43,382 bases of DNA from Deinococcales bacterium. GTDB taxonomy: Bacteria > Deinococcota > Deinococci > Deinococcales > JAAFIG01. The notes beneath the pieces were generated by a model. The model made no database searches and had not been told where the DNA came from. It worked only from the letters and a program-made list of their open reading frames with translations. Positions 131 to 43,223 of the stretch are shown piece by piece. The position numbers were made by a program, and so were the translations under genes. Numbering within the stretch: the first letter of the stretch is position 1; every line of letters begins with the position of its first letter. The stretch lies in assembly GCA_031414595.1 (NCBI GenBank), contig JANNVX010000022.1, forward strand, positions 1 to 43,382, read 5' to 3'.

Positions 131-271
131 ACGTCTAATAAACAACGCTACGAACCCCCGAAACTCGAGGAATTCCAATACATTCAAATCACGGCTGGGA
201 TTAGTTTACCGATTGGTACGAACAGCCTAGACCCTATGAATGATTTTCTCGAAGTGACGGAGCAACAATGA
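131..271 (+). CDS. Small peptide with lasso/RiPP-type leader motif (YEPPKL...TAG), about 46 aa; start codon non-canonical (ACG) or mutated
   Basis: Frame reads (T/M)SNKQRYEPPKLEEFQYIQITAGISLPIGTNSLDPMNDFLEVTEQQ*. The TGA at 269-271 overlaps the ATG at 268 (ATGA). An in-frame TAA lies at 119-121 and there is no in-frame ATG before the motif. Confidence 0.5.
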   Translation, partial: TSNKQRYEPPKLEEFQYIQITAGISLPIGTNSLDPMNDFLEVTEQQ

Positions 272-1971
272 AACGTTTTTTTCTTAGTTTACCAATTTTA
301 GCAATGGCATTTATGGCATGTCAGCAAGCCCCAACCGCCATTCCGAGTATCAACAATCCTAAAGCCATTGGTCAACTCGAGCTAACCTTTGACTCAATTT
401 CTAGTAAAGCCACGGCTTTGATTCGTTCTGGTCTGCAAACCCAAGCGGTGCAAACCTCGAGCAATGTCAGTTTTACCGCGCCGACTTCGCTGAGTGTTCT
501 GAGTAATGCCTCTAAGCAGTACATCACCGCGCAATTCAATGTTAATAATTTACTACCCAGCACAAGTTTAACCGATTTAACCCTAATTGCGTATCAAAAA
601 ACGGGCAATATCGGTGGGACAGCCTTAAAGAATGTCTATAACTTTGCTGGCTCGAGTGTATACCCAATCAATGACCCAGTAGGGATTACTTTTGCTCGAG
701 GTGTCAAACCCAGTAATACACCAAGTAGTTTAGCTCCGTTCACAGTCAATAATGTTGTTTCAGATGTCCAATTTTTTACTGAAAGCGAAGTAACTGCTCT
801 GCAAACATCTGCCAATACTGCAAGTCAACTCAGTGTGGCTGGAGGGGAATACTTATTGCCGTATGGTTTTGTGGCTCGGAACAGCAGCACCTCGAGAACC
901 TTAGCTGCCAATACCAACAATGCTGGTGTGGTGAACATTGCCATTGAAATTCCAATCAGTAACTCGAGCAGTGCTACGACTAGCTATAGATTTAGCATGA
1001 CCTTTATTATTTTTGATGCTCCAGTGGCAACTCGAGTTTCCGAAAGCCTGCAAGAACAAGGCGCGAGTAGCGGAGCAAATACCCGTAAGACTGGTTTTGC
1101 TGCCACACAATTATTTGCGCTTGGCGGCTCGAGTTTACCAGCCAGTCAAATAAGCAATCGTGAATGTGTGCTTCGCACGGCTGGGTCTTCCAGTACACCA
1201 CTGGATTACTTAGTCAATACTTTTAACTTCTCGAGTGTTTCACCAACCATCAATACTAACACAGCCGCCAATAACGCCAATGTCAGAGTAACCACCAATC
1301 AGAATATGAGCGCAGCAACAACTGGTAATTTCGTGGTGCGTGGTGAGTTTACAGGACTTAAAGCTGGAACGTACAGTGGAACAGGCTCGAGTACACTCAC
1401 CTTTGACCCAACCACCGATTTTATGCCGGGTGAATTGGTGACGGCTCAAACCCTTGGTTTAACCAATACTTCTGGTCAAGGTGCGTGTGAACAGGGAAGC
1501 AGAATTTGGCAGTACCGAGCAAATGTGGCAGCAAGGGGGACATTCCAAGCAAAAACCGATTACACCACGGGTACAAATCCTTATTCTGTGGTTTTGGGTG
1601 ATGTGAATAATGACACCAAACTCGACATCATCACCGCAAACTTTAATGTTAATTCCTCGAGTGTCTTGCTCGGTAATGGCGATGGGACATTCCAAGTAAA
1701 AACCGATTACCCCTCGGATTCATTTCTTCAATCTGTCGTTTTGGGTGATGTGAATAATGACACCAAACTCGACATCATCACCGCAAACCTTGGTAATTCC
1801 TTGAGTGTCTTGCTTGGCAATGGCGATGGGACTTTCCAAGCAAAAATCGATTACACCACGGGTTCAAATCCTATTTCTGTGGTTTTGGGTGATGTGAATG
1901 GCGATGCCAAACTCGACATCATCACCGCAAACAATGCTGCTGCTTCCTCGAGTGTACTGCTCAACCGTTAA
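268..1971 (+). CDS. Lipoprotein with Ig-like domain and three C-terminal FG-GAP/VCBS repeats
   Basis: Signal peptide ending AFMA-C; Ser/Thr/Asn-rich body; Ig-like segment (SVSPTIN...TLTFDPTTDFMPGE); three GDVNxDxKLDIITAN repeats. Confidence 0.85.
   Translation: MKRFFLSLPILAMAFMACQQAPTAIPSINNPKAIGQLELTFDSISSKATALIRSGLQTQAVQTSSNVSFTAPTSLSVLSNASKQYITAQFNVNNLLPSTSLTDLTLIAYQKTGNIGGTALKNVYNFAGSSVYPINDPVGITFARGVKPSNTPSSLAPFTVNNVVSDVQFFTESEVTALQTSANTASQLSVAGGEYLLPYGFVARNSSTSRTLAANTNNAGVVNIAIEIPISNSSSATTSYRFSMTFIIFDAPVATRVSESLQEQGASSGANTRKTGFAATQLFALGGSSLPASQISNRECVLRTAGSSSTPLDYLVNTFNFSSVSPTINTNTAANNANVRVTTNQNMSAATTGNFVVRGEFTGLKAGTYSGTGSSTLTFDPTTDFMPGELVTAQTLGLTNTSGQGACEQGSRIWQYRANVAARGTFQAKTDYTTGTNPYSVVLGDVNNDTKLDIITANFNVNSSSVLLGNGDGTFQVKTDYPSDSFLQSVVLGDVNNDTKLDIITANLGNSLSVLLGNGDGTFQAKIDYTTGSNPISVVLGDVNGDAKLDIITANNAAASSSVLLNR
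1537..1968 (+). repeat. Three near-identical tandem coding repeats (147, 144 and about 141 nt) encoding FG-GAP blades
   Basis: Units start at 1537, 1684 and 1828 and share gggac(a/t)ttccaag...ttgggtgatgtgaat...aaactcgacatcatcaccgcaaac. Confidence 0.9.
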
Positions 1972-1986
1972 TTGTACAAACTCAAC

Positions 1987-2018: not shown

Positions 2019-2139
2019 CGTTCTAAATTGAATTTTTGAATTGACCATGTACGATTAGATAAGTAAAGCGAGAAGTCATGCTTATGATACCAAATTGAGA
2101 AAGTTCGTAGAACTTCCCGACTAAAAGGAGTATCAATAA

Positions 2140-3901: not shown

Positions 3902-3967
3902 CATAGCAGATTTCTCGAGCCAGCACGTTAGCTGGCACACGAAATTCAACCGACTACGAATTTGGTA

Positions 3968-4873: not shown

Positions 4874-4893
4874 GTTAAGTCTCGAGGGGGTGA

Positions 4894-16544: not shown

Positions 16545-16567
16545 TTTTGCACACTTTAACCAGACTT

Positions 16568-19817
<3,250 letters not shown>

Positions 19818-27226: not shown

Positions 27227-27859
27227 ATGCTCGTTCAAGATTGGATGACCCCTGCTCCCTTAACCATCGCCCCAAATACCGTAGTTCTCGAGGCGCTAAA
27301 GCTGCTGCAAAAACGAGGCTTCAGGCGTTTACCCGTGGTGGACGGCGCGACCTTGGTGGGTATTGTCACCGATAAGGACTTAAAAGATGCCATGCCGAGT
27401 AAAGCCACAACGCTTTCTGTCTGGGAAATGAATTACTTACTGGCAAAATTAACAGTACGTGAAGTCATGGCAAGCCCCGTTAAAACTTGCCGCGCTTCGG
27501 ACACGCTCGAGAGTGCTGCCCTGATTATGCAGTTCAGTAAAATTGCTGGTTTACCAGTGCTGGACAAAGCTGGCGCACTGGTTGGAATGCTGACCATCAC
27601 CGATGTCTTGGGGGCATTTACCCAAGTGCTTGGGCTAAAAGAAGGCGGGGTACGCCTAACCCTCGAGATGCCCGACGTACCCGGAAGCCTGATGACCGCC
27701 AGTCAAGCGATTCAGCCCGCCAATATCGTCAGTGTTGCCACGGCGGGACACAGCCAAGGCAACCGCAGATTTGTGATTCGCGTGGTCGGGGAAACCGCCC
27801 AAGACCTCGCAGAACGACTGACCAAGGCAGGAATCAATGTGCTGAATGTGCAAGGGTGA
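27227..27859 (+). CDS. CBS-domain plus ACT protein (AcuB-like)
   Basis: [31 protein letters not shown]. Confidence 0.9.
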
Positions 27860-27903
27860 AAGTTTCACCTTTTACCCTATGCTTTGCAGTGGTAACATCA
27901 GAT

Positions 27904-29055: not shown

Positions 29056-30263
29056 ATCCAATCCTTTCTAAACCCCTGACTTTTGAACTCTTCGCCGCCC
29101 CCGGCTGTCTCGAGGAGGCGCTGCTCGAGACAGAAGTGATTGTCGCAAAACCTTGGAAACCGCATAAATTCGCACCAATTTTGACCCTCGAGAAGGGTTT
29201 TGTTCGGGTCAAGAACGCCTCGTGGGATTTTGCCTGTGAACTGGCGGCTCGAGCCACAACTCTGCATGACGTGCGACTCAATTTCCCCACGGCTCGGGTG
29301 CATGGTTGGAACGATTTGCCACGGGTGTTAGAAAAATTACCGTGGGGATTTTTACTGCCTGAGCGTGCCAACCTCGAGTTTCGTTGTGAGGCGTTTGCGG
29401 GTGTGATTCCTCACGCTGGGCGGATGACTAAAATTGTCGAAGAATTATTTGTCAGTAATGGTTTTAAGCTCTCCGCTACCGAGCCGCATTTTAGAATTCA
29501 TGTCACCTCGAGTGGCGATTATTTGCGGGTGGCGGTTAGCCTTGGCAACGATGCCCTGCATAAGCGTGGTTGGCGTGCCAGCACTGGAACACTTGCGCCG
29601 CTCCGTGAGGACATTGCCAGCGCTGCCCTGTGGCGTTTAGCCAGCTTCGAGCCGCGTGTTCTCGAGGCAATGCAAATTGCTGTGCCGTTCGCGGGGAGCG
29701 GTACACTTGGTTTAGAAGCATGGCAGTCGTTGTTTGGGTTGCCGCCGTCGGTCTGGGGGGTGGAACGTCCTTGGCAGTTATTGACCATGCCAAATGCCCA
29801 AACCCTTGAGTGGTGGCGTAATCGCATGGCTCGAGCCGCCGCCGAAGCCTTACTGCCCGAAATTGTGTTTGTTGAAAATGACCCAGCCCAATTTCTAGAA
29901 CTCGAGGGCAATGTCGGACAGGTGCAAAAATTGGTGCAAGGCAATATTTTGTGCATAGAAGCGGATGCTTTCAAAACAGATTTTTTAACTCGGGATGGGG
30001 TTGTCTTATTGCCACTTCATCCGCCGTATGGCTTGCGGATGGTTTCGGAGAATCCAGATGCCTTGTATGGCAAAATTGGTCAATCGGTGCAGAAATGGGC
30101 AGCCAAGTCCAGTCTGGTCGGGTTTTGTTTATGCCCGTCCGAAAGCACTTGGCGGGCGTTTCGGGCGGGTCTCGAGGGGATGAGAGTAGAAACTTCGCAC
30201 TTAACCCAAGGTGGTTTGGATATTCGGGTCTGCTGCTTTAGCAATTTACAGAACCCAGCCTAG
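29052..30263 (+). CDS. THUMP-domain SAM-dependent RNA methyltransferase (RlmL/UPF0020-like)
   Basis: Start placed at ATG 29052 (ATGA overlap); LHKRGWR, APLREDIA, PFAGSGT, HPPYG. Confidence 0.8.
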   Translation: MNPILSKPLTFELFAAPGCLEEALLETEVIVAKPWKPHKFAPILTLEKGFVRVKNASWDFACELAARATTLHDVRLNFPTARVHGWNDLPRVLEKLPWGFLLPERANLEFRCEAFAGVIPHAGRMTKIVEELFVSNGFKLSATEPHFRIHVTSSGDYLRVAVSLGNDALHKRGWRASTGTLAPLREDIASAALWRLASFEPRVLEAMQIAVPFAGSGTLGLEAWQSLFGLPPSVWGVERPWQLLTMPNAQTLEWWRNRMARAAAEALLPEIVFVENDPAQFLELEGNVGQVQKLVQGNILCIEADAFKTDFLTRDGVVLLPLHPPYGLRMVSENPDALYGKIGQSVQKWAAKSSLVGFCLCPSESTWRAFRAGLEGMRVETSHLTQGGLDIRVCCFSNLQNPA

Positions 30264-30379
30264 AATAAGGCAGCCTAAAACATTCCGAACTATTGAGACC
30301 TCAAACTACATTTTTACACGGGGCATCACACCCACGCTGTCGGGGCATCACACCCACACCAAAAACGTAAAATCGCTTT

Positions 30380-31432
30380 GTGAAACGCTGGTGGAAACTG
30401 ATTGTCTTTGGAATTTTCTTTGCGATAGCTGCGGGTTTGGCTTGGGGCTTTGTACAGATTTTGTCGTTGCAACCGCCAGTCCAAGAACCGAATATCAACA
30501 CCCGCCGTGCGGCTAGAACATACCGTGACAGTACGGTTTTTGCGCCAATGACTTCATATAAGCTCCAAAATGGTGTTTTTAGCGCCTCTGGTGCGTCTCG
30601 AGTGCTAATTATGCTGCCAGACCTTGGGACAGGCGCGTGGAGTTTTGCGCCGTGGATGCAAGAACTGCGTGGTTTTGAGCGTCATGCGGTGGCGTACCGC
30701 AATATGCTTGGGGGACAGCCAGCCAGCAATGCCAATCTTGCCGATTATGAAGCCGATGCTCGTGAAGCAATAGAAAAAATGCGGCGTGGGCGTAAAATTG
30801 TGCTGCTCGGTCAAGGTATTGGGGCGTTATTTGCGCTAAAAATTGCAGCAGAACATCCAGCGTGGCTCGAGGGGCTGATTCTGGTTGCGCCGTATACCCC
30901 GCGTCCGTGGTCTGGAGTGCAGTTGGGCGTGGCGCAATTTGTTGGACAGCAGATTTACAACGGTGTCTACTCGAGTCCAGCCGCCAGCACAGATTTTTGG
31001 CGTAAGAATTTTGGCAATGGTTTTGTACAACTGGGTTTACGAGACAAATTCCTCGAGCAGTACGCCTTAAAACGCCAACCCTTTGAATTTAGAGAGGCGT
31101 TAATGCAGTCGCTTTTTGATCCGTTTCCGGAATTGCAAACTTGGTACAACAAGCTCGAGCAAGCCAATTTCCCTGTGCTGCACATTATTGCCCGCTTTGA
31201 TACCAGCAATGCAATCGGTGGGCAGAGAATGTTGCGGGAGGATTTAGCTAAGCAACTTGGCTCGAGATACAGTGTGGCGATTGTCAATTCTGGCAAGTAT
31301 GTTTCTTTGGATTGGCGTTGGCGAGAATCGGCTCAAGTCATCACTGAGTTTCTCAAAGATTTGAAACTAAAACAAAATTTTATCGAAAACGAGGTTTTCC
31401 TTGACCCATTAACCGATAAGGCAGATAAGTGA
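30380..31432 (+). CDS. Membrane-anchored alpha/beta hydrolase-fold protein lacking the nucleophile Ser
   Basis: N-terminal transmembrane segment; IVLLGQGIGALFALKIA where GxSxG is expected; LEGLILVAP. Confidence 0.7.
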   Translation: MKRWWKLIVFGIFFAIAAGLAWGFVQILSLQPPVQEPNINTRRAARTYRDSTVFAPMTSYKLQNGVFSASGASRVLIMLPDLGTGAWSFAPWMQELRGFERHAVAYRNMLGGQPASNANLADYEADAREAIEKMRRGRKIVLLGQGIGALFALKIAAEHPAWLEGLILVAPYTPRPWSGVQLGVAQFVGQQIYNGVYSSPAASTDFWRKNFGNGFVQLGLRDKFLEQYALKRQPFEFREALMQSLFDPFPELQTWYNKLEQANFPVLHIIARFDTSNAIGGQRMLREDLAKQLGSRYSVAIVNSGKYVSLDWRWRESAQVITEFLKDLKLKQNFIENEVFLDPLTDKADK

Positions 31433-32412
31433 TTGAAATTCGCGGGCGGCGAGTGACCTTTATTGCTCCAGCAGGGGCAACCCATTTAATCGGGGATTTT
31501 AGCGATGATAAAGACCGCCCAATCCCACTGGGGGCTGGTCAAAGCCTCACCCTCGAGTTTCCAGTATCAGCGTTTATCGAATACTGTTTTTTAGATGCCA
31601 ATGGTAATCGGCTGACCGACCCCGATAACCCCGACAACGCCGAGAATCCGTGGTGGCGAGAGTACCGTGCTGTACAACTCGAGGGGTACGCCGCTCATCC
31701 GCTGCGTGAAGCCTTGCCAGATGCACCACAAGGCACAAGCCAGTCTTTAAGTTGGGAAAGCCAAATCCTGAGTGGTAAACGCCGAGCTTATTTGCATTTG
31801 CCACCACACTTTAACCCAAGTCTCGAGTACCCAGTATTTATTGTCCAAGACGGTGTAGCCTTTCGGCGCACAGGTAAACTTGGGGTAACGCATGATAACT
31901 TATTGCACCTAGGTAAAATTCGCCCGTGTATCTTTTGTTTTTTAGAACCACAAGACCGCACACAAGAGTATTACTTTAATTCTGAGTACCTAGAATTTTT
32001 ACTTCAAGATGTTTTGCCTCGTCTCAAGCAACTCTATAAAATAAGTCAGTACGGACTCTGGGGTGCAAGCCTAGGTGGTCTCGCCAGCTTATATGCGGCG
32101 ATGCAAGCCCCAAAGACTTTTCCAATGGTGGTGACGCAAAGCGGCGCATTCCAAGGCAACCCAAGCACCCCATATGCTCGAGGCGGTGAGGATTGGCTGA
32201 CCAAGCAACTCGAGCAGCGAGAAACCCTACCCTTAAGAATCAGTGCTGACTGCGGCACACTCGAATGGCTAATCGGCACAAATCGTCACTTTGCTGCCAT
32301 GCTTCACAACAAGGGCTATGTACATCAGTACCTCGAGCGACCCAGTGGTCATAATTGGGTCACATGGCGAAACGGACTGGCATCACATCTCGAGTGGCAT
32401 TTGGGGGCATAG
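31429..32412 (+). CDS. Fes-like esterase with N-terminal domain
   Basis: YLHLPP, VQDG, GASLGG, DCGTLE, SGHNW. Confidence 0.85.
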   Translation: MIEIRGRRVTFIAPAGATHLIGDFSDDKDRPIPLGAGQSLTLEFPVSAFIEYCFLDANGNRLTDPDNPDNAENPWWREYRAVQLEGYAAHPLREALPDAPQGTSQSLSWESQILSGKRRAYLHLPPHFNPSLEYPVFIVQDGVAFRRTGKLGVTHDNLLHLGKIRPCIFCFLEPQDRTQEYYFNSEYLEFLLQDVLPRLKQLYKISQYGLWGASLGGLASLYAAMQAPKTFPMVVTQSGAFQGNPSTPYARGGEDWLTKQLEQRETLPLRISADCGTLEWLIGTNRHFAAMLHNKGYVHQYLERPSGHNWVTWRNGLASHLEWHLGA

Positions 32413-32517
32413 GGTAAAAAGGTGAAAAGTAGAAAAGGTAAAAAGGTTAAAGACAAAACATTTCTCAATACTTTAACCCTTTAACCTTTTTACCTTTTAA
32501 CCCTGCCCTTTACCCCT
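32412..32517. repeat. Inverted pair of short tandem arrays (ggtaaaaa-like, then tttaaccc-like)
   Basis: Same 8-mer families as 4922-4980; the two arms are mutually complementary. Confidence 0.85.
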
Positions 32518-32573
32518 ACATCTTGCGTTTAGAATTTCACTGACCTCGAGTACCAGTATGATAGAGTGTTTTT

Positions 32574-35500
32574 ATGGCTAGTCCTGAAGTTTCTCCTCGT
32601 CCTACGGTTAAACCGAAATCATCTCGGAAACGCAAGAAAACTGCGTCGGTCAGTTCTCCTGCTCGAGTGGCGGATGTTGAAGCGATTGGTTTAATTTTAT
32701 TTGGTGTGGGAATTATGGCGTTGTTCACAGTGCTTGCTCCGCCAAGTATCGCAGCTTTTGCGGCTTGGCAAAAGGCTTTACGGACATCCTTGGGTTGGGG
32801 AATGTATTATTTACCGCTTCCTTTTTTTGTCTTTGGGGCATTGCTACTCTTAAAGAAAAAAGTCGGTTTTGCGGCTCGAGTGCTGCTTGGTGTTTTGGTG
32901 ATGACAGTGGCGGGCTTGTTGGGAACAGCTTTTTTTGATGCAAAATTAGCAGGGAGTTTTGCTGTGGCGGTTATGACTCCAATGAAAGTGGTGATGCCAT
33001 TGCCGTTGGTGCTGATTGCTTTTTTGGGTAGTCTGGGCTTAGAAATCTCGCTTGGTTGGCAACGCACCCGAATTGCTCGAGCCGCCGCCCGAATTACCAG
33101 TTTAGGTATGCTTTCGGCTGCCAGTGCCACGGGTGCAGCCGCCAAAAGAGCCAAGGATGCCACCAATCGGCTGAGTCTGCAAATTGCAGCGCGGCGTGGG
33201 TTCGACAGCGCCAGCCGCGACATCACCGAATTACAGGATTTATACACGGGTTCAAGCGATTTATCGTCTTGGAAACGCGAAATTGAGCGCAGCAGCGATG
33301 CAATTAACGATGCTGACGAAGCGCGTTTAACCAGTTTACGTGACGAAGCCGGTTCGGTTCGTTCCAGAGTTTCGGCTTTTACCCAAGCTCGAGGTAAAGA
33401 CATCACTCAGAATTTGGCACTCGAGGATGTTGGCGCATTACTGTTAATAGATGAAGCCCGTAAGCAATTATTAAACCCTGTGTTAAGTAAAAACGCTGCC
33501 GCGATTGCGCTCGAGGATGTGCGTCGGGCGTTGCAACTCGAGACCAAAGCTGTCGAGGAAACCGAACGTAAATTGGTGCGTGAACGTGACAACGCCAGTC
33601 GCGCCTTAAGTGCCTCGCTTCGTCCAATGGATTTACGGCTTGAACTTGAACGACATGAAGAGCGTTTGGAGCGCAGTAAACAGTTGCGGGTCAAATGTGA
33701 GCATCTGTTGACACGGGTTGCGCCGTTAGCTGGATGGCATGAGTTTATCGCTCGGCTCGAGAACCGCCAAGAAGCCGATGTGCTTGGGTTTATCAAGAAT
33801 CTCGAGTCTAGTTTGCAAAATGGTTTAGCCGATGTGCTGCCAGAGTTACCGCACTGGACAAGTGACTTGGATACCTTAGAGCGCAATTTGGCTGTACAAG
33901 CAATTGCATTGGAGCAAGCCCAAGCTGTGGCGGTTGAACAAACCCAAATGGTCTGGGATGAACTCGATAAAAAAAGCCAAGCTGAGGTGGTCTACAACGC
34001 CACGTTTGAACTCGAGTATCCAAATGGGCAGTTTGTGTCTGGTGAGGATGCTCACCGAGTCATTCGTGGTTTAGAGACGGTTGACATTGGACTCGAGGAC
34101 GAAGACGATGCTGCCCCGTGGCAAGAATCCACATGGGTATCGCCTGCCGAACGTGCTGCCCAGAAAATGGAAGAAGCACGAATTAAAAAAGCCAGTGCCT
34201 TACAACAAAACACTGACCGAAATTTTCAGGATAATAACGGTTTCGCGCCCGGAATCGCTGATAGTGGCGTGGGTGAACGTCTGCGTTTTGACCCAAGTAA
34301 AGCCGTTGGCGCAATTCCAATTCAAGTTCCTGGTACGGCTTTTCTCGACCCAATGCAGGTTTCGGGGATTGACATGGTGGCTTTTGACCGTGCGGCAAGG
34401 GAACGCGGTGCGATTCTCGATGAGTGCTTCAAGAACTTTGGGGTCAATGCCAAAGTTTTGACCTTCGCCAGAGGTCCAACCGTCACGCGCTTTGAAGTTG
34501 AACCTGCGCCCGGCGAAAAAATTGCTCGAATTGCCAGTTTACAAAACGATATTGCTCGAGTCTTATCTGTGGGTGGGATTCGTTTAGAAGCCCCTGTTCC
34601 TGGCAAAAGCGTGGTTGGTATCGAAGTGCCAAATATCGAGCGCGAACCAATTACCTTTAGGCAAGGTATCGAAAGTAAAAGTTTTCAGAGTGGTAAACAA
34701 AAACTGCCGCTTATGCTCGGTAAAAGTATAGACGGTGAAATGGTGGTGGATGACCTTGTGCGAATGCCGCACTTATTGATTGCGGGCAGCACAGGCTCTG
34801 GTAAATCGGTCTGTGTCAACACCCTGATTATGAGCTTGCTGTTTCGGTATTTACCGACCCAAATGCGTTTTGTGATGATAGACCCAAAAATGGTTGAACT
34901 TACGCCTTACGACGGCATTCCGCACTTGGTACGCCCTGTGGTTACTAATCCATCTGATGCCGCAGGGGTGTTGCTTGGGTGTGTGGCGCACATGGAACGA
35001 CGTTACAAAATGATGTCTGAGGTGCAAGCCAAGAATTTAGAACAGTACAACGAAAAAGCCCGAGCCGTCGGCGACCCTGAATTGCCATTTCTAGTGATTA
35101 TCATTGACGAACTTGCTGACTTGATGATTACTTCGCCCAAAGAAGTCGAAAGCAGCATTATGCGTTTAGCGCAAATGGCTCGAGCCACGGGGATGCACCT
35201 AGTATTAGCCACCCAACGCCCAAGTGCCGATGTGCTGACCGGCTTAATTAAAGTCAATGTGCCAGCCCGAATTGCCTTTGCGGTGTCTTCGGGTATTGAC
35301 AGTCGCACGATTTTGGACAGCACCGGCGCAGAACGTTTAACGGGTAACGGCGACATGCTTTTTTACCGCCCCGGACTAAGCAAAGCCACTCGTCTTCAAG
35401 GACCGTATATTTCCGAAGCAGAACTTGCCCGAATTACCGAATTCTTGCGTAAACAACACTATGAAGACGATTTTGGCGAGACGTATGGCTCGGACTTTGA

Positions 35501-35777
35501 TGGTGTGGTTGAAGCTGCCAGTTCTGGCAAAGTTGACTCGAGCATGATTGACTTTGGCGACCCTTTAATCAAAAAAGCTGCCGAAGTGGTGGTCGAAGAA
35601 GGCTACGCGGCTGTCTCGAGATTGCAACGCCGTTTAAGTGTTGGTCATGCTCGAGGTGGTAAATTGATTGATGCGCTTGAATCTATGGGTATTGTTGGTG
35701 GCTATAAAGGAAGTAAATCCAGAGAAGTCTTAATCACCGCCGATCAGTTACCCGAGTATTTTGGTAAGCCGAATTAA
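32574..35777 (+). CDS. ftsK: DNA translocase FtsK
   Basis: N-terminal transmembrane segments, coiled-coil linker, [38 protein letters not shown], gamma domain ([17 protein letters not shown]). Confidence 0.96.
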
Positions 35778-35865
35778 AGTTAAAATCGCAAGGCTAACCT
35801 ACAGGAAAATCATAGTGAAAGAGATAGCCAGAATTTATGTAGACTACCAATTAAATGAATTAGGG

Positions 35866-36342
35866 ATGTATTTTTTTGGATTCTTAATTTATTTTATCTA
35901 TTGTTCCATTTCTGCTTCAGTCTACTTAATATCACTGTCTTTTGCAGCCAGCTTTTTGGGTTTAAGAACTCGACAATTACACATTGGCAGAATAGCCTTG
36001 ATAAAAGTCCGAGAGAAGTGGGTACTTTCACTGAAAAATCAGCCGTTTCGTATTGCTGGTAGTGTTCGATTTGAAAAAAGTGAATTGGGTTTGAGCCTTT
36101 GGAAAAAGTTATTTTTTGGTTTTATTGGCGTATCCTCTTCCATTATTTTAATTACCCTTTTGATTTTACGACCATTTTTGTTGCCAATAGTTAATTCAAA
36201 TCACAATTTTATTACTATGCTGAGATTTCTGAATATGTTTCTTCCAATAATGGAAATTGTTTTTTTGACTTACAATTTAATGCCGAAAAAGTTTGGATTC
36301 AATTATTTCACATTGGGCTATATCGTTTTCCATAAAAGTTAG
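35866..36342 (+). CDS. AT-rich membrane protein resembling a degenerate site-2 protease (M50) without HExxH
   Basis: Start placed at ATG 35866; hydrophobic helices; LHIG...AGSVRF...WKKLFFGFIG...YNLMP. Confidence 0.45.
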   Translation: MYFFGFLIYFIYCSISASVYLISLSFAASFLGLRTRQLHIGRIALIKVREKWVLSLKNQPFRIAGSVRFEKSELGLSLWKKLFFGFIGVSSSIILITLLILRPFLLPIVNSNHNFITMLRFLNMFLPIMEIVFLTYNLMPKKFGFNYFTLGYIVFHKS

Positions 36343-36407
36343 ACTATTTGACAAGAAAGTTACACGAGTTCTTGATGGGGTTTTTGCAAATCTATTTTGG
36401 TATTCAG

Positions 36408-36920
36408 ATGTCTAAATTACAGTTGTCAATTATCATTATGGGAGTCTCGGGTTGCGGTAAAACCACGCTTGGGCAAAAATTAGCTGCTCGGCTCGAGTAT
36501 CCGTTTTTTGATGCCGATGATTTTCACGACACCACAAACAAAGAAAAAATGGCGGCTGGTATTCCTTTAACCGACGCTGACCGAGCCACTTGGCTGGAGA
36601 CGCTGGCAAATCTTCTGGAGACATATTCTCCGTGTGTGCTGGCATGTTCGGCATTAAAAGAACAGTACCGTTTACAGTTGGCTAGAAACTCAAAACTGCA
36701 TTGGGTCTATTTGCGTGGTAGCAAGGAGTTAATTGCGGCACGGCTGCAAACTCGAGAACACTTTTTTAATCCCAAGCTGCTGGCTTCGCAGTTTGAAATT
36801 CTTGAAGAACCTCAAAATGCGATTGTGGTTTCGATTGAACATTCCCTCGAGACAATCGTCGAAATGGTGCTTGGTGTATTGTCCAATTCGGTTTTACAAT
36901 CAGGTTTACCCGTAGAATAA
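36408..36920 (+). CDS. gntK: Gluconokinase
   Basis: MGVSGCGKTT, DADDFH, PLTDADR, ACSALK, SQFEILEEP. Confidence 0.93.
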   Translation: MSKLQLSIIIMGVSGCGKTTLGQKLAARLEYPFFDADDFHDTTNKEKMAAGIPLTDADRATWLETLANLLETYSPCVLACSALKEQYRLQLARNSKLHWVYLRGSKELIAARLQTREHFFNPKLLASQFEILEEPQNAIVVSIEHSLETIVEMVLGVLSNSVLQSGLPVE

Positions 36921-36939
36921 ACCATGAAAAGGAAAAATC

Positions 36940-38397
36940 ATGACCACACCAACGGCTGACATCGGCATTATCGGACTCGCTGTAATGGGCGAGAATTTGG
37001 TTCTGAACATGGCAAGCAAAGGTTTTACGGTTGCGGCATTTAATCGCACCATAGAAAAAGTAACGGCGTTTAAGGCAGCCCGAGGCTCGAGTGACAAAAT
37101 TCTTGGAGCGGGTAGTTTAGCCGAGTTTGTTGGGTCGTTAAAACATCCGCGTCGGGTGATGCTGATGGTCAAGGCGGGCGCAGCCGTGGATGCAACCATC
37201 GCCCAACTCGTACCGATGCTCAAAGCTGGGGATATTATTGTAGACGGTGGCAATAGTCATTTTGATGACACCAACCGACGGGTCAAGGAACTCGAGACGC
37301 ATGGGATTTTATTTGTCGGTTCGGGGGTGTCTGGCGGTGAAGAAGGCGCACTAAAAGGACCCAGTATCATGCCGGGCGGGTCAGTTGCAGCTTGGGAGCA
37401 TATCAAACCAATTTTTCAGGGCATTGCGGCTCGAGCCACAGACAACGCGCCATGTTGTGAATGGCTGGGCAAGGCTGGGGCTGGGCATTTTGTAAAAATG
37501 GTACATAACGGCATCGAGTACGGCGATATGCAAATGATTGCTGAAGCCTACAGTTTACTGCGATACGCTGGTCTGGGGAATTCGGAAATTGCTGATGTTT
37601 TTTCGCAGTGGAACAAAGGCGAATTGGAAAGTTACTTGGTCGAAATTACCGCCGATATTCTGCGTAAAAAAGATGATGCCACTGGGCTTGACCTTGTGGA
37701 CGTAATTTTAGACACGGCTGGGCAAAAAGGCACTGGTAAATGGACTTCTACAGTTGCACTTGATGTCGGCAGCCCCGCCAATACGATTGCCGAAGCGGTT
37801 TTTGCACGCTGCTTATCTGCCTTAAAAGAAGAACGGGTTCATGCCTCGAGTATTCTCAAAGCTCCACCAAGCGCCCCGATTACCGACCAAGCCGCCTTTA
37901 TCGAAGATGTACGCCAAGCGCTGTTTGCCAGTAAAATCTGTTCTTATGCCCAAGGTTTCCAGTTAATGAAAATGGTGGCAGCCGAACAACAATGGAATCT
38001 CGAGTATGGCACAATTGCGGCTGTTTGGCGCGGCGGTTGTATTATTCGGGCTGGATTCTTAGAGAACATCAGGCAGGCTTACGGCACAGACTCGAGCCTA
38101 GCCAATTTATTACTGGATTCGTACTTTGCACAGGTTATAGAAAATCATCAAGCCGCATGGCGGCGAGTCATTTGCAGTGCCACGATGAACGGCATCTGGA
38201 TACCTGCCTTCTCGAGTGCCTTGGCGTACTTTGACGGCTACCGCACTGCCCGTCTAAGCACCAATATCCTCCAAGCCCAACGGGATTACTTTGGGGCGCA
38301 TACTTATGAGCGCACCGATAAGGCTCGAGGTGAGTTTTTTCATACCAATTGGACAGGTGAGGGCGGGACAACCAGTGCCAGCACCTACAGCGTTTAG
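36940..38397 (+). CDS. gnd: 6-phosphogluconate dehydrogenase (decarboxylating, NADP+)
   Basis: GLAVMGENL, VSGGEEGA, KMVHNGIEYGDMQ, QAQRDYFGAHTY. Confidence 0.97.
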   Translation: MTTPTADIGIIGLAVMGENLVLNMASKGFTVAAFNRTIEKVTAFKAARGSSDKILGAGSLAEFVGSLKHPRRVMLMVKAGAAVDATIAQLVPMLKAGDIIVDGGNSHFDDTNRRVKELETHGILFVGSGVSGGEEGALKGPSIMPGGSVAAWEHIKPIFQGIAARATDNAPCCEWLGKAGAGHFVKMVHNGIEYGDMQMIAEAYSLLRYAGLGNSEIADVFSQWNKGELESYLVEITADILRKKDDATGLDLVDVILDTAGQKGTGKWTSTVALDVGSPANTIAEAVFARCLSALKEERVHASSILKAPPSAPITDQAAFIEDVRQALFASKICSYAQGFQLMKMVAAEQQWNLEYGTIAAVWRGGCIIRAGFLENIRQAYGTDSSLANLLLDSYFAQVIENHQAAWRRVICSATMNGIWIPAFSSALAYFDGYRTARLSTNILQAQRDYFGAHTYERTDKARGEFFHTNWTGEGGTTSASTYSV

Positions 38398-38456
38398 AAA
38401 AAACGTCAACTCTTACGGACTCCCTCGAAAGAGCGGGGTCAAAGGTCAAGGAAAAT

Positions 38457-39929
38457 ATGCCTAATTCCCTCGAGCCAACTGCCATAATTATTTTTGGTGC
38501 TTCTGGCGATTTAACCAAACGCAAACTTTTACCAGCACTGTATCAATTGGTCTTGGATGGTCATGCCCCAGAGCGCTTTAGCATCATTGGTGTGGCTCGG
38601 ACAGTCATGTCTCGAGACGAGTATCAAGCGATTGCTAAAGAAGCCCTTGAACGCGCCTACAAGCAACCACTCGAGGAAGAGGCATGGCAGCGTTTTGCAG
38701 CCATGCTCGATTACAAACCACTTGATTTTAATAATGTGCAGGATTTTATTGCCCTGCGGCTTGAACTCGAGCAAGCTGGGTTCTTAAATTGGTTGTTTTA
38801 TTGTTCTGTGCCGCCAAGTGTCTTTCCGACCATTACCCAACAACTTGGTGAGTCTGGTTTGAGTTCTGAAACCTTGGGCTATACCCGTATTATTGTCGAA
38901 AAACCCTTTGGGACAAACCTCGAGACTGCTAAAATCTTAAATCTCGAGTTACACAAGGTCTTTACCGAAAGCCAAATTTACCGCATAGACCATTTTCTGG
39001 GCAAAGAAACAGTCCAGAACATTCTAGCATTGCGTTTTGCCAACACGATTTTTGAACCGCTTTGGAATCGTAATTATGTAGATCATATTCAGATTACGGT
39101 TGCCGAGGACTTGGGCATGGAAGGACGCGGCGGATTTTACGAAGAAGCTGGAATTCTGCGTGACATGGTGCAGAATCACATGATGCAACTGCTTTGTTTT
39201 ATTGCCCTCGAGCCTCCCGTTGGTCCTTGGCAGGGCAGCATTCATCCATTAGAAGCTGGGGCGCTGCGCGACGAAAAAGCCAAAGTGATTCGGGCTTTGC
39301 GTCCGATTACTGCCGAATTTCTCGAGCATTCGATTGTGCTGGGGCAGTACAGCGCTGGACAAATTGGTTCAGAACCGGCGGTAAGCTATCTTGAAGAAGC
39401 CAAAGTTAGCCCAGACTCGAAAACCGCCACCTATGCAGCCTTAAAAGTCGAAATAGACAATTGGCGTTGGGCGGGTGTGCCTTTTTACCTGCGGAGTGGT
39501 AAGCGTTTGCCAGTCAAAAACACCGAAATTGCGATTGTCTTTAAGCGTCCGCCACTTGATTTATTCCCACAACCCAGCCAGCCGAACATGCTCAGGATTA
39601 ACATTCAACCACACGATGGGGTGAACCTGAGTTTTGATGCCAAAATGCCGGGTTTAACCGCCGATTTACGCCCCGTCAACATGGATTTTAATTACTCAGA
39701 TTTTGGCGCAAGTGGACCCAGTGCTTATGAGCGCCTGATACTCGACGCGATGCACGGCGATGCTTCTCTGTTCCCTCGCGGCGATGAAGTCGAAGCGTCT
39801 TGGGCATGGATTGCGCCTCTGCTCGAGTGCCAAGTGCCTTTGCATTCATATGCGGCGGGGACTTGGGGTCCTGAGCAAGCTGATGGGTTACTGGCTGCCA
39901 ATCAAACTTGGCATAAACTAAAATCATGA
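38457..39929 (+). CDS. zwf: Glucose-6-phosphate dehydrogenase
   Basis: FGASGDLTKRKLLP, VEKPFG, YRIDHFLGKE, RDMVQNH. Confidence 0.97.
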   Translation: MPNSLEPTAIIIFGASGDLTKRKLLPALYQLVLDGHAPERFSIIGVARTVMSRDEYQAIAKEALERAYKQPLEEEAWQRFAAMLDYKPLDFNNVQDFIALRLELEQAGFLNWLFYCSVPPSVFPTITQQLGESGLSSETLGYTRIIVEKPFGTNLETAKILNLELHKVFTESQIYRIDHFLGKETVQNILALRFANTIFEPLWNRNYVDHIQITVAEDLGMEGRGGFYEEAGILRDMVQNHMMQLLCFIALEPPVGPWQGSIHPLEAGALRDEKAKVIRALRPITAEFLEHSIVLGQYSAGQIGSEPAVSYLEEAKVSPDSKTATYAALKVEIDNWRWAGVPFYLRSGKRLPVKNTEIAIVFKRPPLDLFPQPSQPNMLRINIQPHDGVNLSFDAKMPGLTADLRPVNMDFNYSDFGASGPSAYERLILDAMHGDASLFPRGDEVEASWAWIAPLLECQVPLHSYAAGTWGPEQADGLLAANQTWHKLKS

Positions 39930-40747
39930 AGCAACTTATTTTTGAAAACCCCGAAAGCCTAGCGAAGGCTGCCGCACAATCTTTTGGGGAATTGGCACAA
40001 GAGGCGATAACTTCTCGAGGGCGGTTCAATGTGGCATTGGCAGGTGGCAGCACACCCAAAGTGATTTACGAAAAACTGGCAATACTGCCCTTACCTTGGG
40101 CGCAAATTCATTTTTTTTGGGGCGATGAACGGCTTGTACCAATCACTGACTCGAGGTCAAATTACCGCATGGTATTTGAGGCGCTACTCGAGAAAATACA
40201 GATTCCACCTGAAAATGTGCATCGGGTTCAAACTAGGCTCGAGACTGAAATGGAAAATCATGTTCTCTTACAGGGAGACCACTTCTTGACCACAACTACA
40301 GCACCTTCGGGCTTGGGTCGCAAGGGTCTCCCCTACAAAAAACCATTTGCCGTAGGGGAGGGGCTTGTCCCCTCCCTGCCCTTTACGGATTCTGATTTTG
40401 AACACATCCTCAAGTCGTACATTACCGAACTCGAGGGTCTGCAATTTGACTTAATACACCTTGGACTCGGCACGGATGGACACATGGCTTCACTTTTCCC
40501 CGCCACCAACCTCGAGATGAATGCACTTGCCCAGCTGACTTTCCCTACGGCTGGACTCGAGCCTCAAGTGCAGCGCATCAGCCTGAGCTTACAAACCATT
40601 AACGCTGCTCGAGTTAAACAATTTTTTGTGACTGGCACAAGTAAAAAACCCATTCTCGAGCAGATTAGAAACGGTGTAGATTATCCTGCTGCTCAAGTTC
40701 AAAATGCCCAATGGTGGTTAGACCAAGCTGCCAGCACAGACGAGTAG
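39926..40747 (+). CDS. pgl: 6-phosphogluconolactonase with in-frame repeat-derived insertion
   Basis: ALAGGSTP, WGDERLVP, SNY, LGLGTDGHMASLFP; extra segment between ENVHRV and FDLIHLG. Confidence 0.92.
   Translation: MKQLIFENPESLAKAAAQSFGELAQEAITSRGRFNVALAGGSTPKVIYEKLAILPLPWAQIHFFWGDERLVPITDSRSNYRMVFEALLEKIQIPPENVHRVQTRLETEMENHVLLQGDHFLTTTTAPSGLGRKGLPYKKPFAVGEGLVPSLPFTDSDFEHILKSYITELEGLQFDLIHLGLGTDGHMASLFPATNLEMNALAQLTFPTAGLEPQVQRISLSLQTINAARVKQFFVTGTSKKPILEQIRNGVDYPAAQVQNAQWWLDQAASTDE
40271..40378. repeat. Inverted doublet of GTAG-type REP hairpins inside pgl (40271-40336 minus; 40352-40378 plus)
   Basis: cagggagacc-ac[39 nt]aag-ggtctcccctac and gtaggggagggg-cttgt-cccctccctg. Confidence 0.8.
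40283..40321 (+). mobile_element. 39-nt dispersed element inserted in a REP loop
   Basis: ttcttgaccacaactacagcaccttcgggcttgggtcgc; removing it restores the acaag loop. Confidence 0.75.
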
Positions 40748-40755
40748 AATACGCC

Positions 40756-41847
40756 ATGCCCAAATTTGATTGGATCAAATACTTCCCCCTGATTTGGCTA
40801 ATTTTCATGATTTTTCCTGTGCTAGGCGTACTCGAGAAACCCCGTTTGGTTTTAGAATATATTTTTGCATTTGGCTTACAAATCAGTTTCATCGGTGTTT
40901 TCATTTGGTGTTATTACATTGCGCCTTCTGATTATGAACTCGAGCTTCGTCCCGCCAGTTCTTTTGGCATGATTTGGTCATTGTTGATGTTTGCCCTACT
41001 TTTTCCAATGATTGGTTGGGATGGCGTGGGCTTTTTAATTTACAGTGGAACTTTTGGTGGTTTTCAACGTTCGGCTCGAGTTTTTGCAATTAACGTAACC
41101 CTGATTTCTGTTTTTATTGGCATTCTTGTGGGGCTAAATATCTTATCTTGGCAATTTTTGATCATGCCTTTTTTTGCTGTGGTCGGCGGGGCGGGTAATC
41201 ACATCGGGTATTTGGCGGGAATCAGCAGCCGTAATCTTCGCACTGCCCAAGCCGAGGTCGAACGGATTGCCCAACTTGCCGAACGCGAACGTATCGCTCG
41301 AGATGTCCATGACCTGATGGGACACAGCCTAAGTGTGATTGTCCTTAAAGCCGAATTAGCAGCGCGGTTACTCGAGAAAAACCCACCAAGAGCCAAACAA
41401 GAAATCCTTGAAATTGAACATTTAGCCCGCTCTGGACTACAAGAAGTGCGAGCCGCCGTGCGAGGCTACAGAAGCCTCAATTTAAGCAGTGAACTCGAGA
41501 ATGCCAAACTTGCCCTAAGTGCCGCCAGCATTAAACTCGAATTGCTTAGCCTGCCTTTGCAACTCGAGTGGGCGCAAGAAAGTGCGCTGGCGTATGCGCT
41601 GCGTGAAGCCATCACCAACACGATTCGGCACTCGAGCGCTCAGGTTTGCTGGATTACCCTAGAACCACACGGCACAAATGCCCAACTCGAGATTTGGGAC
41701 GATGGAAGCGGCACAATCACCGAAGGCAACGGGATTAAAGGAATGCGCGAACGCCTAGAAAAAGCAGGTGGGCAACTCAGACTCGAGACGAGTAACGGCG
41801 CTCATGGGATGCGCTTACTTGTACCACTACAAAAGGTGCAAGCATGA
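40756..41847 (+). CDS. DesK-like sensor histidine kinase (HisKA_3)
   Basis: Multiple transmembrane segments; ERERIARDVHDLMGHSLS; REAITNTIRHS; GNGIKGMRER. Confidence 0.93.
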   Translation: MPKFDWIKYFPLIWLIFMIFPVLGVLEKPRLVLEYIFAFGLQISFIGVFIWCYYIAPSDYELELRPASSFGMIWSLLMFALLFPMIGWDGVGFLIYSGTFGGFQRSARVFAINVTLISVFIGILVGLNILSWQFLIMPFFAVVGGAGNHIGYLAGISSRNLRTAQAEVERIAQLAERERIARDVHDLMGHSLSVIVLKAELAARLLEKNPPRAKQEILEIEHLARSGLQEVRAAVRGYRSLNLSSELENAKLALSAASIKLELLSLPLQLEWAQESALAYALREAITNTIRHSSAQVCWITLEPHGTNAQLEIWDDGSGTITEGNGIKGMRERLEKAGGQLRLETSNGAHGMRLLVPLQKVQA

Positions 41848-42446
41848 TTCGGGTTTTACTAGCCGAAGACCAAACCCTTGTTTTGGGTGCATTATCGGCA
41901 CTGCTCGAGCTAGAAGACGATATAACTGTGGTTGCCCAATGCACCGACGGACAAGAAGCCCTAGAACAAACCCTGCGCTTACAACCTGATGTGATTTTGA
42001 CCGATATTGAAATGCCGTTCATGACTGGACTTGAGTTAGCCGCAGAACTCAAAAAACAAGGCTGTCAAAGCAAAGTAATTATTGTTACAACCTTTGCCCG
42101 AAGTGGCTATCTGCGCCGCGCTTTAAAGGTTGGGGCAGCTGGCTATTTACTCAAAGACACACCCGCCTCGCAACTTGCCGAAGCCGTCCGCCGAGTCCAC
42201 CAAGGTTTACGCGCCATAGACCCGAACTTAGCCGCCGAAGCATGGAGCGAACCCGACCCACTAACCGACCGCGAACGCCAAGTCTTGCGCCTAGCTGCAA
42301 CAGGAATCTCGAGCAACGAAATAGCTGGGCTTTTAGGTTTATCCGAAGGCACAATTCGCAATTACTTATCTGAAGCCAGTAGCAAACTGGGCGCGAACAA
42401 CCGTATCGAAGCGGCTCGAATTGCCCGAGAAAAAGGGTTTTTATGA
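41844..42446 (+). CDS. DesR-like NarL/LuxR response regulator
   Basis: VLLAEDQ, DIEMP, TTFARSGY, LTDRERQVL, GTIRNYLS. Confidence 0.94.
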   Translation: MIRVLLAEDQTLVLGALSALLELEDDITVVAQCTDGQEALEQTLRLQPDVILTDIEMPFMTGLELAAELKKQGCQSKVIIVTTFARSGYLRRALKVGAAGYLLKDTPASQLAEAVRRVHQGLRAIDPNLAAEAWSEPDPLTDRERQVLRLAATGISSNEIAGLLGLSEGTIRNYLSEASSKLGANNRIEAARIAREKGFL

Positions 42447-43223
42447 TTAACGATAATTTGTGCCTTCGTCGCGTTTGTAAGCCCAGACTGCCAGCGCCAC
42501 AAATACAACCGTGTAGCCTAAAATCCAAATCAGGTGTTCTAAACTGCTTTCGCGGTTAATGCCGACCGCCGCTCGAGCAAACGCACCACTGTGGTACGAT
42601 GGTAAGTACGGCGCGATCTGCTGCATAATTTTTGGTAAAGTCTCGAGCGGTACAAATAAGCCCGAACCAAAAGCCATTGGGAAAAAAACCAAATTGATAA
42701 TTGGACTGGCCGTCTGAGCGCCTTTGGAAACATAACCAATAAATGCACCTAGGGCAGCAAAAGGAAGCATTCCGATTAAGGCTCGAATCAGCATCTCGAG
42801 CCAAATGTTTAGCGGTTGGTCTAAGTTAATGCTGAATTTTCCATAAACCAGTAATAAAATTAGGGCAACAGCAGCTAAACCGAGTGTGGCGAGCATTTTT
42901 GCGCCCAGTACCTGCCATACCTTCATCGGTGTGACCCGAACCAATTTATAAAAACCTTGAGCGCGTTCCGAAGCAATCCCAATGCCAATGTTAAAGAATA
43001 CAGTTTGAATCGCACTGTACGCCGCAAAAGAACACAGCAAGTATGCCCCTACCGAGAATCCATTGATTTCACGTCCAGCGTTGGGAATTCCAAAGAAAGT
43101 CCAGAACATAATTGGAAAAATAAAAGTTGGTACAAGTGCGGACGGTGAACGCAGCACCGCAATCATTTCGGTATACAACAAGTAAGTAAATGCTCCTAAA
43201 CTCGAGTTGGTGGTGTTTTGCAT
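42447..43223 (-). CDS. ABC-2 type exporter permease
   Basis: Six transmembrane segments; IASERAQG...VTP; GSGLFVPLETLP...PYLPSYH; RBS aaggag. Confidence 0.9.
   Translation of the reverse strand: MQNTTNSSLGAFTYLLYTEMIAVLRSPSALVPTFIFPIMFWTFFGIPNAGREINGFSVGAYLLCSFAAYSAIQTVFFNIGIGIASERAQGFYKLVRVTPMKVWQVLGAKMLATLGLAAVALILLLVYGKFSINLDQPLNIWLEMLIRALIGMLPFAALGAFIGYVSKGAQTASPIINLVFFPMAFGSGLFVPLETLPKIMQQIAPYLPSYHSGAFARAAVGINRESSLEHLIWILGYTVVFVALAVWAYKRDEGTNYR

Follow-up and report, generated by a model that had tools for sequence, protein, structure and literature searches.

CTCGAG in the window and in the G000 genome

The window analyzed here is one entire contig (C22; 43,382 bases) of the assembly G000, which amounts to 4,488,778 bases in 120 contigs of up to about 205 kb and is 94% complete; other handles beginning with G denote the genomes compared with it. 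The element under study is the six-base palindrome CTCGAG, which is spread over the whole window in the manner of HIP1 (GCGATCGC), a cyanobacterial palindrome. To our knowledge, cyanobacteria are the only group in which highly iterated palindromes have been described until now, and what they do there has been under debate for thirty years. A housekeeping gene had its closest named relative in a record labeled "MAG: Deinococcales bacterium" (L001, 73% identity), in line with the proposal of an earlier, sequence-only reading that a HIP1-type palindrome occurs here in a non-cyanobacterial lineage. Approximate gene calling yielded 36 open reading frames (ORFs) in the window and 3,865 in the genome, the latter covering 88% of it. 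The CTCGAG features of the window referred to below are:

164-43206, no strand: 242 copies of CTCGAG, running from the copy at 164-169 to the one at 43201-43206, in all frames and between genes
3914-3919, no strand: example of an intergenic CTCGAG, outside the called ORFs
24443-24448, no strand: site gained in the G000 lineage, inside the ORF at 22794-25268 (minus strand), from the multi-genome alignment
37999-38004, plus strand: CTCGAG in the 6-phosphogluconate dehydrogenase gene (gnd), Leu-Glu residues 354-355, from the homolog alignment

The 242 exact copies correspond to 5.58 per kb. Base composition alone predicts 9.5 copies in the window, and 100 dinucleotide-preserving shuffles gave a mean of 4.86 (standard deviation 2.32, largest value 11), none of them reaching 242. 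All three reading frames are used, with 124, 51 and 49 sites in the ORFs, and 18 further sites lie outside them. The intergenic sites include, in addition to the one at 3914, those at 4881, 6215, 9432, 15825, 19830, 22731, 25292 and 32545. Close pairs occur at 14737/14745, 24806/24813, 25392/25399 and 24443/24453. The sequence-only reading had counted about 240 copies by hand, expected 9-11 from base composition, and described use of all frames, nine intergenic positions and three close pairs; each of these statements held up on recounting, the nine positions all being true sites outside the called ORFs, and the pair at 24443/24453 was added.

The G000 assembly as a whole contains 23,235 copies, or 5.18 per kb (about one per 190 bases), with densities of 2.4-6.4 per kb among the 40 contigs listed. 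CTCGAG is the commonest hexamer in this genome; the next six all overlap it, and the first independent one is AAAAAA, with 5,616 copies. The observed/expected ratio (O/E) of CTCGAG was 23.9, 43.6, 18.1 and 3.8 under Markov models of order 0, 1, 2 and 3, respectively, a many-fold over-representation of the HIP1 type, and 1.16 under a model of order 4. The last value is circular, because the pentamers CTCGA and TCGAG are themselves almost confined to CTCGAG. Of all TCGA tetramers in G000, 69% sit within CTCGAG. One-base variants of the word number 5,263 for the outer pair of positions and 3,208 and 3,572 for the other two pairs.

The repeated unit does not extend beyond the hexamer. The flanking bases are near uniform in the NCTCGAGN table, so that there are no conserved flanks, unlike in a dispersed repeat such as a repetitive extragenic palindrome (REP) or a miniature inverted-repeat transposable element (MITE). 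Nor was there a longer consensus: the four palindromic 8-mers that contain CTCGAG had O/E values of 0.25-0.90 relative to the flanks, with CCTCGAGG the lowest, at 0.25.

Codon usage and protein sequence

Two observations could be taken to mean that the abundance of CTCGAG is a by-product of codon usage or amino-acid composition, or else an artefact of assembly or library construction: the Leu-Glu frame (CTC-GAG) is the commonest, with 12,104 of the 20,418 genic sites in G000 compared to 4,001 and 4,313 in the other two frames, and the order-4 Markov ratio is only 1.16. The second is disqualified by the circularity noted above. Against the first, the density of CTCGAG is equal outside genes (5.34 per kb in non-coding and 5.15 per kb in coding DNA of G000), and a value of 5.29 per kb (O/E 30) was obtained for 1,768 intergenic segments between 50 and 400 bp long. 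When synonymous codons were shuffled within genes, only 1,970-2,071 of the genic sites, or about 10%, were retained in five shuffles. Furthermore, the trait is common to 19 independent assemblies, described in the next section, which rules out an enrichment confined to this contig, such as an artefact of XhoI-based library construction, the outcome that the sequence-only reading had itself named as a refutation. Taken together, we give an origin as by-product or artefact practically no chance.

The codons that make up the word are minor ones elsewhere in the genome and become dominant only where they complete it. CTC accounts for 7.9% of Leu codons overall and 64.8% of those preceding Glu, while GAG rises from 20% generally to 70% following Leu. 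In the other two frames, CGA increases from 13.6% to 82% when it stands between ..CT and G.., and the share of TCG goes from 13% to 81% with ..C before it and AG after it. The odds ratios for this context-dependent choice are 29, 28 and 93. The mirror word GAGCTC, which encodes Glu-Leu with the identical two codons, has 6 copies in all of G000. These results agree with the earlier statement that codon usage is insufficient to explain the word. A dicodon-preserving shuffle is ill-posed as a refutation of such a signal, since CTC-GAG is itself a dicodon and is preserved by construction.

The effect reaches the protein sequence. Leu-Glu is the most over-represented dipeptide in G000, with 20,172 observed against 9,074 expected (O/E 2.22). 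At residues 354-355 of the gnd product, Leu-Glu is seen in none of 80 homologs, 71 of which have Leu-Asn there, and the CTCGAG at this place was thus created by an amino-acid replacement. CTCGAG is therefore a highly iterated palindrome at the level of DNA that does not have its source in codon usage, and the force that acts on it overrides codon preference and replaces amino acids. A DNA-level signal that rewrites proteins matters for codon-usage models, phylogenetics and composition-based binning of these genomes.

Distribution within the family and the order

The word was followed through the family to which G000 belongs, sampled by 19 genomes (G000 and 18 others) from five genera. Eighteen of these are draft, incomplete genomes (57-94% complete), apparently derived from metagenomes, and one (G013) is a closed chromosome of 5.1 Mb. 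All 19 contain 4.3-6.8 CTCGAG per kb, the closed chromosome alone holding 23,515 copies. GC content differs within the family, from 47% in G000 to 61% in G013. The 21-kb locus of the nearest named record (L001) likewise has 4.8 copies per kb, compared to a median of 0.09 across 80 loci fetched from many phyla. CTCGAG has thus been inherited through a whole uncultured family of Deinococcales.

The order-wide sample of 201 genomes comprised this family and four others, denoted f2 (53 genomes), f3 (53), f4 (23) and f5 (53). In the main genus of f3 (g7, 51 genomes), there are 26-942 copies per genome, and the other two f3 genomes have 797 and 1,193. Since about 1,400 would be expected in 4 Mb of DNA with 67% GC, g7 avoids the word. 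GAGCTC is similarly scarce in the g7 genomes, while the sister family accumulates CTCGAG. In genus g9 of f5, CTCGAG is roughly as frequent as GAGCTC. In contrast, three other genera of f5 (g13, g22 and g24) and several of f2 have 2-3.4 CTCGAG per kb with GAGCTC rare; an 18.5-kb sample of one genome (G128) contained 60 copies of the former and 2 of the latter. The family of G000 is therefore the extreme of a wider tendency within the order. The suggestion in the sequence-only reading that some Meiothermus genomes may be rich in CTCGAG is plausible, several genera of the sister families having 2-3.4 copies per kb and few GAGCTC.

The strength of the trait is graded, being extreme in one family, intermediate in families with near-complete genomes and reversed in one genus. 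This constitutes a natural comparative series, which could be used to test a methylation ratchet, a drive through uptake or recombination, and a role in chromosome structure, the three kinds of explanation considered below.

Gain, loss and spacing of sites

Stretches of 3-13 kb of the window were aligned with seven genomes of the same genus at 71-92% identity. Between 58% and 90% of the G000 sites were conserved in these genomes, compared to 17-72% for all hexamers; in each of the four most divergent genomes, the conserved share was 58-82%. Overall, conservation of the word is two to four times as frequent as that of other hexamers. When the 680 hexamers that occur 12 times or more were ranked on these four genomes, CTCGAG came 6th, the median hexamer being conserved to 28% and the synonymous alternatives TTAGAA and CTTGAA to only 22% and 14%. 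Identity at third codon positions was 0.83-0.89 within CTCGAG against 0.61-0.68 in the flanks.

Turnover was assessed at 129 positions, each aligned in four or more genomes and occupied by CTCGAG in at least one of these. The word is universal at 35 of them, present in a single genome at 27 (gains) and absent from a single genome at 25 (losses). Gains often required two or three base changes. At position 24443, for example, where G000 has gained a site, the same-genus genomes G005, G001 and G004 have CCCGTG, two bases away. At 29328, G003 has CTCGAG while four other genomes retain TTAGAA, and at 37660 the CTCGAG of G006 stands against CTGCGT in five genomes, changing Leu-Arg to Leu-Glu. Of 798 site instances, only 3 fall opposite a gap in the alignment, with gap columns making up 1.3% of all alignment columns; CTCGAG therefore arises by substitution, as HIP1 reportedly does. 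Between G000 and G013, which belong to different genera, four sites in two genes occupy identical codon positions, where 0.07 would be expected by chance. The force that makes the word and holds it at about 5 per kb is directional, and gains and losses are balanced.

Within G000, the gaps between sites have a coefficient of variation (CV) of 0.99, and the variance/mean ratio of counts per kb is 1.01, which is essentially Poisson. An even spacing was rejected on these two values. Pairs closer than about 60 bp are depleted, to 0.44-0.90 of expectation, a short-range exclusion, and the only periodicity up to 600 bp is the codon period of three bases. Only four overlapping 5-kb windows hold six or fewer copies, and only four gaps exceed 2.5 kb.

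These data bear on the idea that CTCGAG structures the chromosome, that is, that a nucleoid-associated protein binds it chromosome-wide and purifying selection retains each site. The conservation of sites above background, synonymous positions included, is as this idea would have it, as are the equal densities in coding and non-coding DNA and the very small number of CTCGAG-poor 5-kb windows. Selection and a structural role have also been argued for HIP1 (Xu et al. 2018). However, a Poisson-like spacing with no period other than three bases up to 600 bp, and a turnover so high that only 35 of 129 positions are universal, speak against it, and no candidate binding protein is known. We consider a structural role quite unlikely.

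Motif-poor islands and avoidance of other palindromes

The motif-poor stretches of G000, which have low GC, coincide with a polysaccharide cluster on contig C46, an RHS/HINT polymorphic-toxin gene, a gene for a clostripain-like peptidase and a gene whose product has no Pfam match. The C46 cluster (about 28000-42000, L313) has a GC content of 31-42% and 0-5 CTCGAG per 2 kb, and consists of some 12 polysaccharide biosynthesis genes, among them epimerases, glycosyltransferases, an asparagine synthase, a flippase-like protein and an aminotransferase. It was probably imported recently. Horizontal exchange is common for loci of such kinds.

The abundance of CTCGAG is set against a general scarcity of palindromes. 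Of the 64 palindromic hexamers, 34 have an O/E below 0.1 in G000 and 53 an O/E below 0.5. GGCC occurs 152 times where about 14,000 copies would be expected, GGGCCC not at all and CGATCG 3 times, and GATC has an O/E of 0.14; the window contains 0 GAGCTC, 2 GGCC and 16 GATC. GAGCTC is limited to 25 copies or fewer in 15 of the 18 other family genomes, the exceptions being G002 (114), G012 (161) and G010 (568).

The phage portal family PF04860 was found in none of the 19 family genomes, including the closed 5.1-Mb chromosome of G013, which left no prophage for comparison. Viral contigs with clusters of CTCGAG (at least 80 loci) were also considered. These were mostly generic high-GC phages that keep GGCC and GAGCTC, and they are uninformative about the phages of this family.

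DNA methyltransferases and the methylation model

Three sets of genes are needed for what follows, two of them adjoining in the window:

27856-29055, plus strand: cytosine-C5 DNA methyltransferase (PF00145, 7.9e-92; M.HhaI nearest, 1.4e-61)
29052-30263, plus strand: family-specific gene with a methyltransferase fold of the THUMP/RlmL/TrmN type, with HPPYG (here the HPPY gene); its first bases overlap the last ones of the C5 gene
G000 contig C1, 26904-27875 and 28004-28231 (L098), adjacent: D12-class adenine methyltransferase, then a MutH/Sau3AI-family gene

Applied to this family, Elhai's model for HIP1, a methylation ratchet, would have an orphan methyltransferase act on CTCGAG or its TCGA core, and methyl-directed or short-patch repair restore and fix the sites. 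Several points speak for such a ratchet here. CTCGAG is a typical type II target, and an orphan methyltransferase specific for it has been reported in Nocardia (Blow et al. 2016; PMC4752239). According to Elhai (2015; PMC4390886), each cyanobacterial palindrome of this kind has a cognate methyltransferase, with N4-methylcytosine (m4C) enzymes sometimes replacing 5-methylcytosine (m5C) enzymes. A gamma-class N6 enzyme, or more than one, occurs in all of the family genomes examined, with a specificity that is not readable from sequence. Finally, the one-base variants at the outer position pair are the commonest, as given above.

G000 is well endowed with candidates, encoding about two dozen DNA methyltransferases: five C5 enzymes, about nine of the gamma N6 class, several of which are type I or IIG, about eight of the beta N4/N6 class, and one D12. 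So large a repertoire fits the extreme avoidance of other palindromes in this genome. In almost every one of these genes, the density of CTCGAG is normal. CTCGAG is enriched and not avoided, unlike the usual target of a restriction-modification system. The XhoI endonuclease family (PF04555) was not found in G000, in a search to which the control genomes were silent as well.

Two individual enzymes were rejected as drivers. The C5 enzyme of the window is M.HhaI-like, and its orthologs (80-99% identity) are limited to the genus, being found in six of the seven same-genus genomes, while the word is family-wide; elsewhere its matches are at the paralog level, with at most 63% identity, and G010, G011 and G014 yielded none at 1e-20. 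A TaqI_C-type N6 enzyme on contig C89 has close matches only in G001 (86%) and G016 (81%) and weaker ones in G009 and G019, a sporadic pattern.

The comparison was extended by BLASTP to Pfam matches of PF01555, PF07669, PF02384 and PF02086 in five further family genomes from four genera (G006, G009, G010, G011 and G013), with the single C5 gene of G013 included. No DNA methyltransferase of G000 of the C5, beta, gamma or D12 type had an ortholog spanning the six family genomes compared; the best match in the five was a single pair at 59% identity, in G010 only. One D12 group (A) is common to G009, G011 and G013 only, at 58-71% identity, and has 26% identity to the D12 enzyme of G000. G013 has no PF01555 beta-class N4/N6 enzyme despite its 23,515 sites, and none of its seven methyltransferase candidates is orthologous to any enzyme of G000. 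The METHYLTRANSFERASE prediction of the sequence-only reading, a methyltransferase for TCGA or CTCGAG that goes with the trait, accordingly found no counterpart in an orthologous enzyme across these six genomes.

Further points also count against the ratchet. Vsr was found in none of the 19 family genomes. Among the transition variants of the word, CTTGAG and CTCAAG, which deamination would produce, do not stand out. The only MutH-like gene found adjoins the D12 enzyme and is most simply assigned to a GATC restriction pair, and it was rejected as a repair driver; judged from gene order and family matches, the two genes are probably a GATC-type restriction-modification pair, which fits the O/E of 0.14 for GATC.

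A methyltransferase repertoire that is not family-wide, in combination with a word that is, weakens the methylation model without eliminating it, as sequence does not reveal specificity and non-orthologous replacements have been described in cyanobacteria (Elhai 2015). In this family, the ratchet would require either repeated replacement by unrelated enzymes of the same specificity or an unrecognized enzyme family. We regard it as possible, if somewhat doubtful. Should the absence of a co-inherited DNA methyltransferase hold, it would argue against methylation as a necessary part of the phenomenon.

The HPPY gene

The phyletic distribution of the HPPY gene resembles that of the word. Full-length orthologs (51-96% identity) are present in 17 of the 18 other family genomes, and partial homologs with 25-42% identity occur outside the family in 20 of 53 f2 genomes and 2 of 53 f5 genomes, with none in f3 (0 of 53) or f4 (0 of 23). 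In the whole protein database, the protein has 59 relatives among 5.8 billion. Of its few distant full-length relatives, the two that are named (P0055 and P0056; 27% identity) are both from Pigmentibacter, of an unrelated phylum. HPPYG is invariant in all 15 family proteins compared, while an f2 homolog (G159) has NPPYG. The two f2 homologs that were scanned both contain RlmL_1st and UPF0020, that of G159 also THUMP, and homologs from f2 match PF01170 at 1e-38 to 1e-40, compared to 2e-5 for the protein of the window. The structure predicted for the latter (pLDDT 86) matches RNA m2G methyltransferases that contain THUMP over its full length (RlmL, TM 0.74; Trm14; TrmN), and no DNA methyltransferase was among the top 50 structure matches listed.

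This raises the possibility that an RlmL/TrmN-like enzyme was recruited from RNA to DNA and writes or reads CTCGAG. Its presence in nearly every family genome, with only partial homologs elsewhere, would fit, as would its strong divergence from the canonical f2 homologs, the invariant HPPYG and the narrowness of the family. Yet the fold is that of an RNA m2G methyltransferase along its full length, and the phyletic pattern amounts to a single evolutionary event, as for any family-specific gene. Moreover, a search of G010, 91% complete and rich in CTCGAG, did not find the gene, and the f5 genera with intermediate CTCGAG abundance lack it; in G013, its neighbors are unrelated to DNA metabolism. 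The predicted fold points to an RNA target, which makes the protein a weak lead, and we rate its recruitment as very improbable.

CTCGAG as a proposed self word in DNA exchange

The most likely mechanism, which we put forward tentatively, is that CTCGAG is a "self" word, recognized by a protein and favored in the uptake of kin DNA, in recombination or in repair. A sequence-specific and probably dimeric protein would recognize CTCGAG, and DNA bearing the word would be favored when kin DNA is taken up or used in recombination or repair. The outcome would be a molecular drive, similar to the one proposed for uptake sequences and to mechanisms lately put forward for a part of HIP1 in transformation, with CTCGAG building up in resident DNA and missing from imported DNA.

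On present evidence, such a mechanism needs no family-wide orthologous DNA methyltransferase, and this is one reason for preferring it, as no co-inherited enzyme is required. It is also favored because the kinds of gene cluster that are often imported are poor in CTCGAG, and because the word is at full density in methyltransferase genes that are variable among the family genomes, the latter fitting a gene flow that is mostly within the clade. The avoidance of other palindromes argues in the same direction, since it suggests heavy DNA traffic among strains with differing restriction systems. Lastly, HIP1 itself has been reported to raise transformation efficiency (Kamoku & Nielsen, preprint) and proposed as an uptake signal (Rodriguez-Cruz et al. 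2026).

A number of points weigh against a self word of this kind. We identified no CTCGAG-recognizing protein or receptor. A six-base word separates self from foreign DNA only about 20-fold, and the Poisson spacing gives no sign that one copy is needed per fragment. Composition-based binning may have dropped contigs without CTCGAG from the family assemblies. ComEC and DprA were each found in 30 of 31 genomes searched, G000 included, but as they are order-wide, these competence genes do not discriminate and only fail to refute the uptake idea. The uptake sequences known from other bacteria lack palindromic symmetry, measure 9-12 bases and are present at about 1 per kb; cultured Deinococcus and Thermus are not known to take up DNA in a sequence-specific way; and a six-base palindrome is what methyltransferases and restriction enzymes classically recognize. 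The transformation effect of HIP1 is, moreover, methylation-dependent, by the account of Kamoku & Nielsen.

A narrower version would make CTCGAG a kin-recognition word read directly by the family's exchange or recombinational-repair machinery, free of methylation. The strong avoidance of most other palindromes would then be a second consequence of this intense exchange of DNA among strains. This version strikes us as unlikely; if true, it would describe the first palindromic, hexameric "self" signal of its kind. In a bolder form still, the RlmL-type variant encoded by the HPPY gene would also have been recruited to act on CTCGAG.

Comparison with known systems

CTCGAG most resembles HIP1 and the alternate palindromes of cyanobacteria, with which it has in common that it is a short palindrome containing G and C, hyper-abundant genome-wide in coding and non-coding DNA alike. 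Like HIP1, it spreads by substitution and not insertion, is conserved above background, is lineage-wide and has an unexplained function. However, it is a different word, of six and not eight bases, in a different phylum. The densities also differ, at 4.3-6.8 per kb for CTCGAG and 0.3-2.7 per kb for HIP1 (Elhai 2015), and HIP1 has a cognate methyltransferase by that account, whereas no co-distributed one was found for CTCGAG in the six family genomes. HIP1 is reported to be periodic at 10-90 kb (Xu, Lawrence & Durand 2018; PMC5861425); CTCGAG has no spacing pattern up to 600 bp beyond the codon period, on contigs too short for periods of 10-90 kb. CTCGAG thus represents a second, independent and denser case of a highly iterated palindrome, in another phylum.

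The uptake signal sequences (USS) of Pasteurellaceae and the DNA uptake sequences (DUS) of Neisseriaceae are likewise lineage-specific, occur in genes and spacers, shape peptides and are lacking in foreign DNA. A molecular drive is possible for CTCGAG as for these sequences, the core competence genes ComEC and DprA being present, but CTCGAG differs from them in being a six-base palindrome and, at 5.2 per kb, is five times denser. Chi is another frequent short word that marks self DNA in recombinational repair (by RecBCD or AddAB), and it is non-palindromic and strand-biased. A palindrome cannot be strand-biased, and RecC was found in none of the 31 genomes searched, a search that did not cover AddAB. 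The same hexamer is an orphan-methyltransferase target in Nocardia, where the motif is clustered at the replication origin and tracks the orphan enzyme (Blow et al. 2016); in the present family, it is genome-wide with no co-distributed enzyme found.

We found no published report of CTCGAG hyper-abundance in the literature searched, Deinococcota and Meiothermus included, the supplements of methylome and palindrome papers lying outside the search. Among the matches listed for iterated palindromes since 2016, all concerned cyanobacteria or were passing citations of HIP1. Neither CTCGAG nor the string Deinococc appears in the main texts of Elhai (2015) and Rodriguez-Cruz et al. (2026), and no occurrence of Deinococc or non-cyanobacteri was found in Xu et al. 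(2018).

Other features of the window

Three stretches of the window (about 28911-29015, 32404-32531 and 40260-40415) contain sequences of 40-110 bp that recur at 75-100% identity on dozens of G000 contigs and in all of the same-genus genomes. They resemble REP or MITE elements, small repeats dispersed over the genome. One of them falls where the C5 methyltransferase gene meets its neighbor. At 16541-18769 (plus strand), the window also encodes a Ser/Thr protein kinase of 742 amino acids, for which the best NCBIfam match, below the curated cut-off, is MAD6 (6e-32), a kinase of the methylation-associated defense system.

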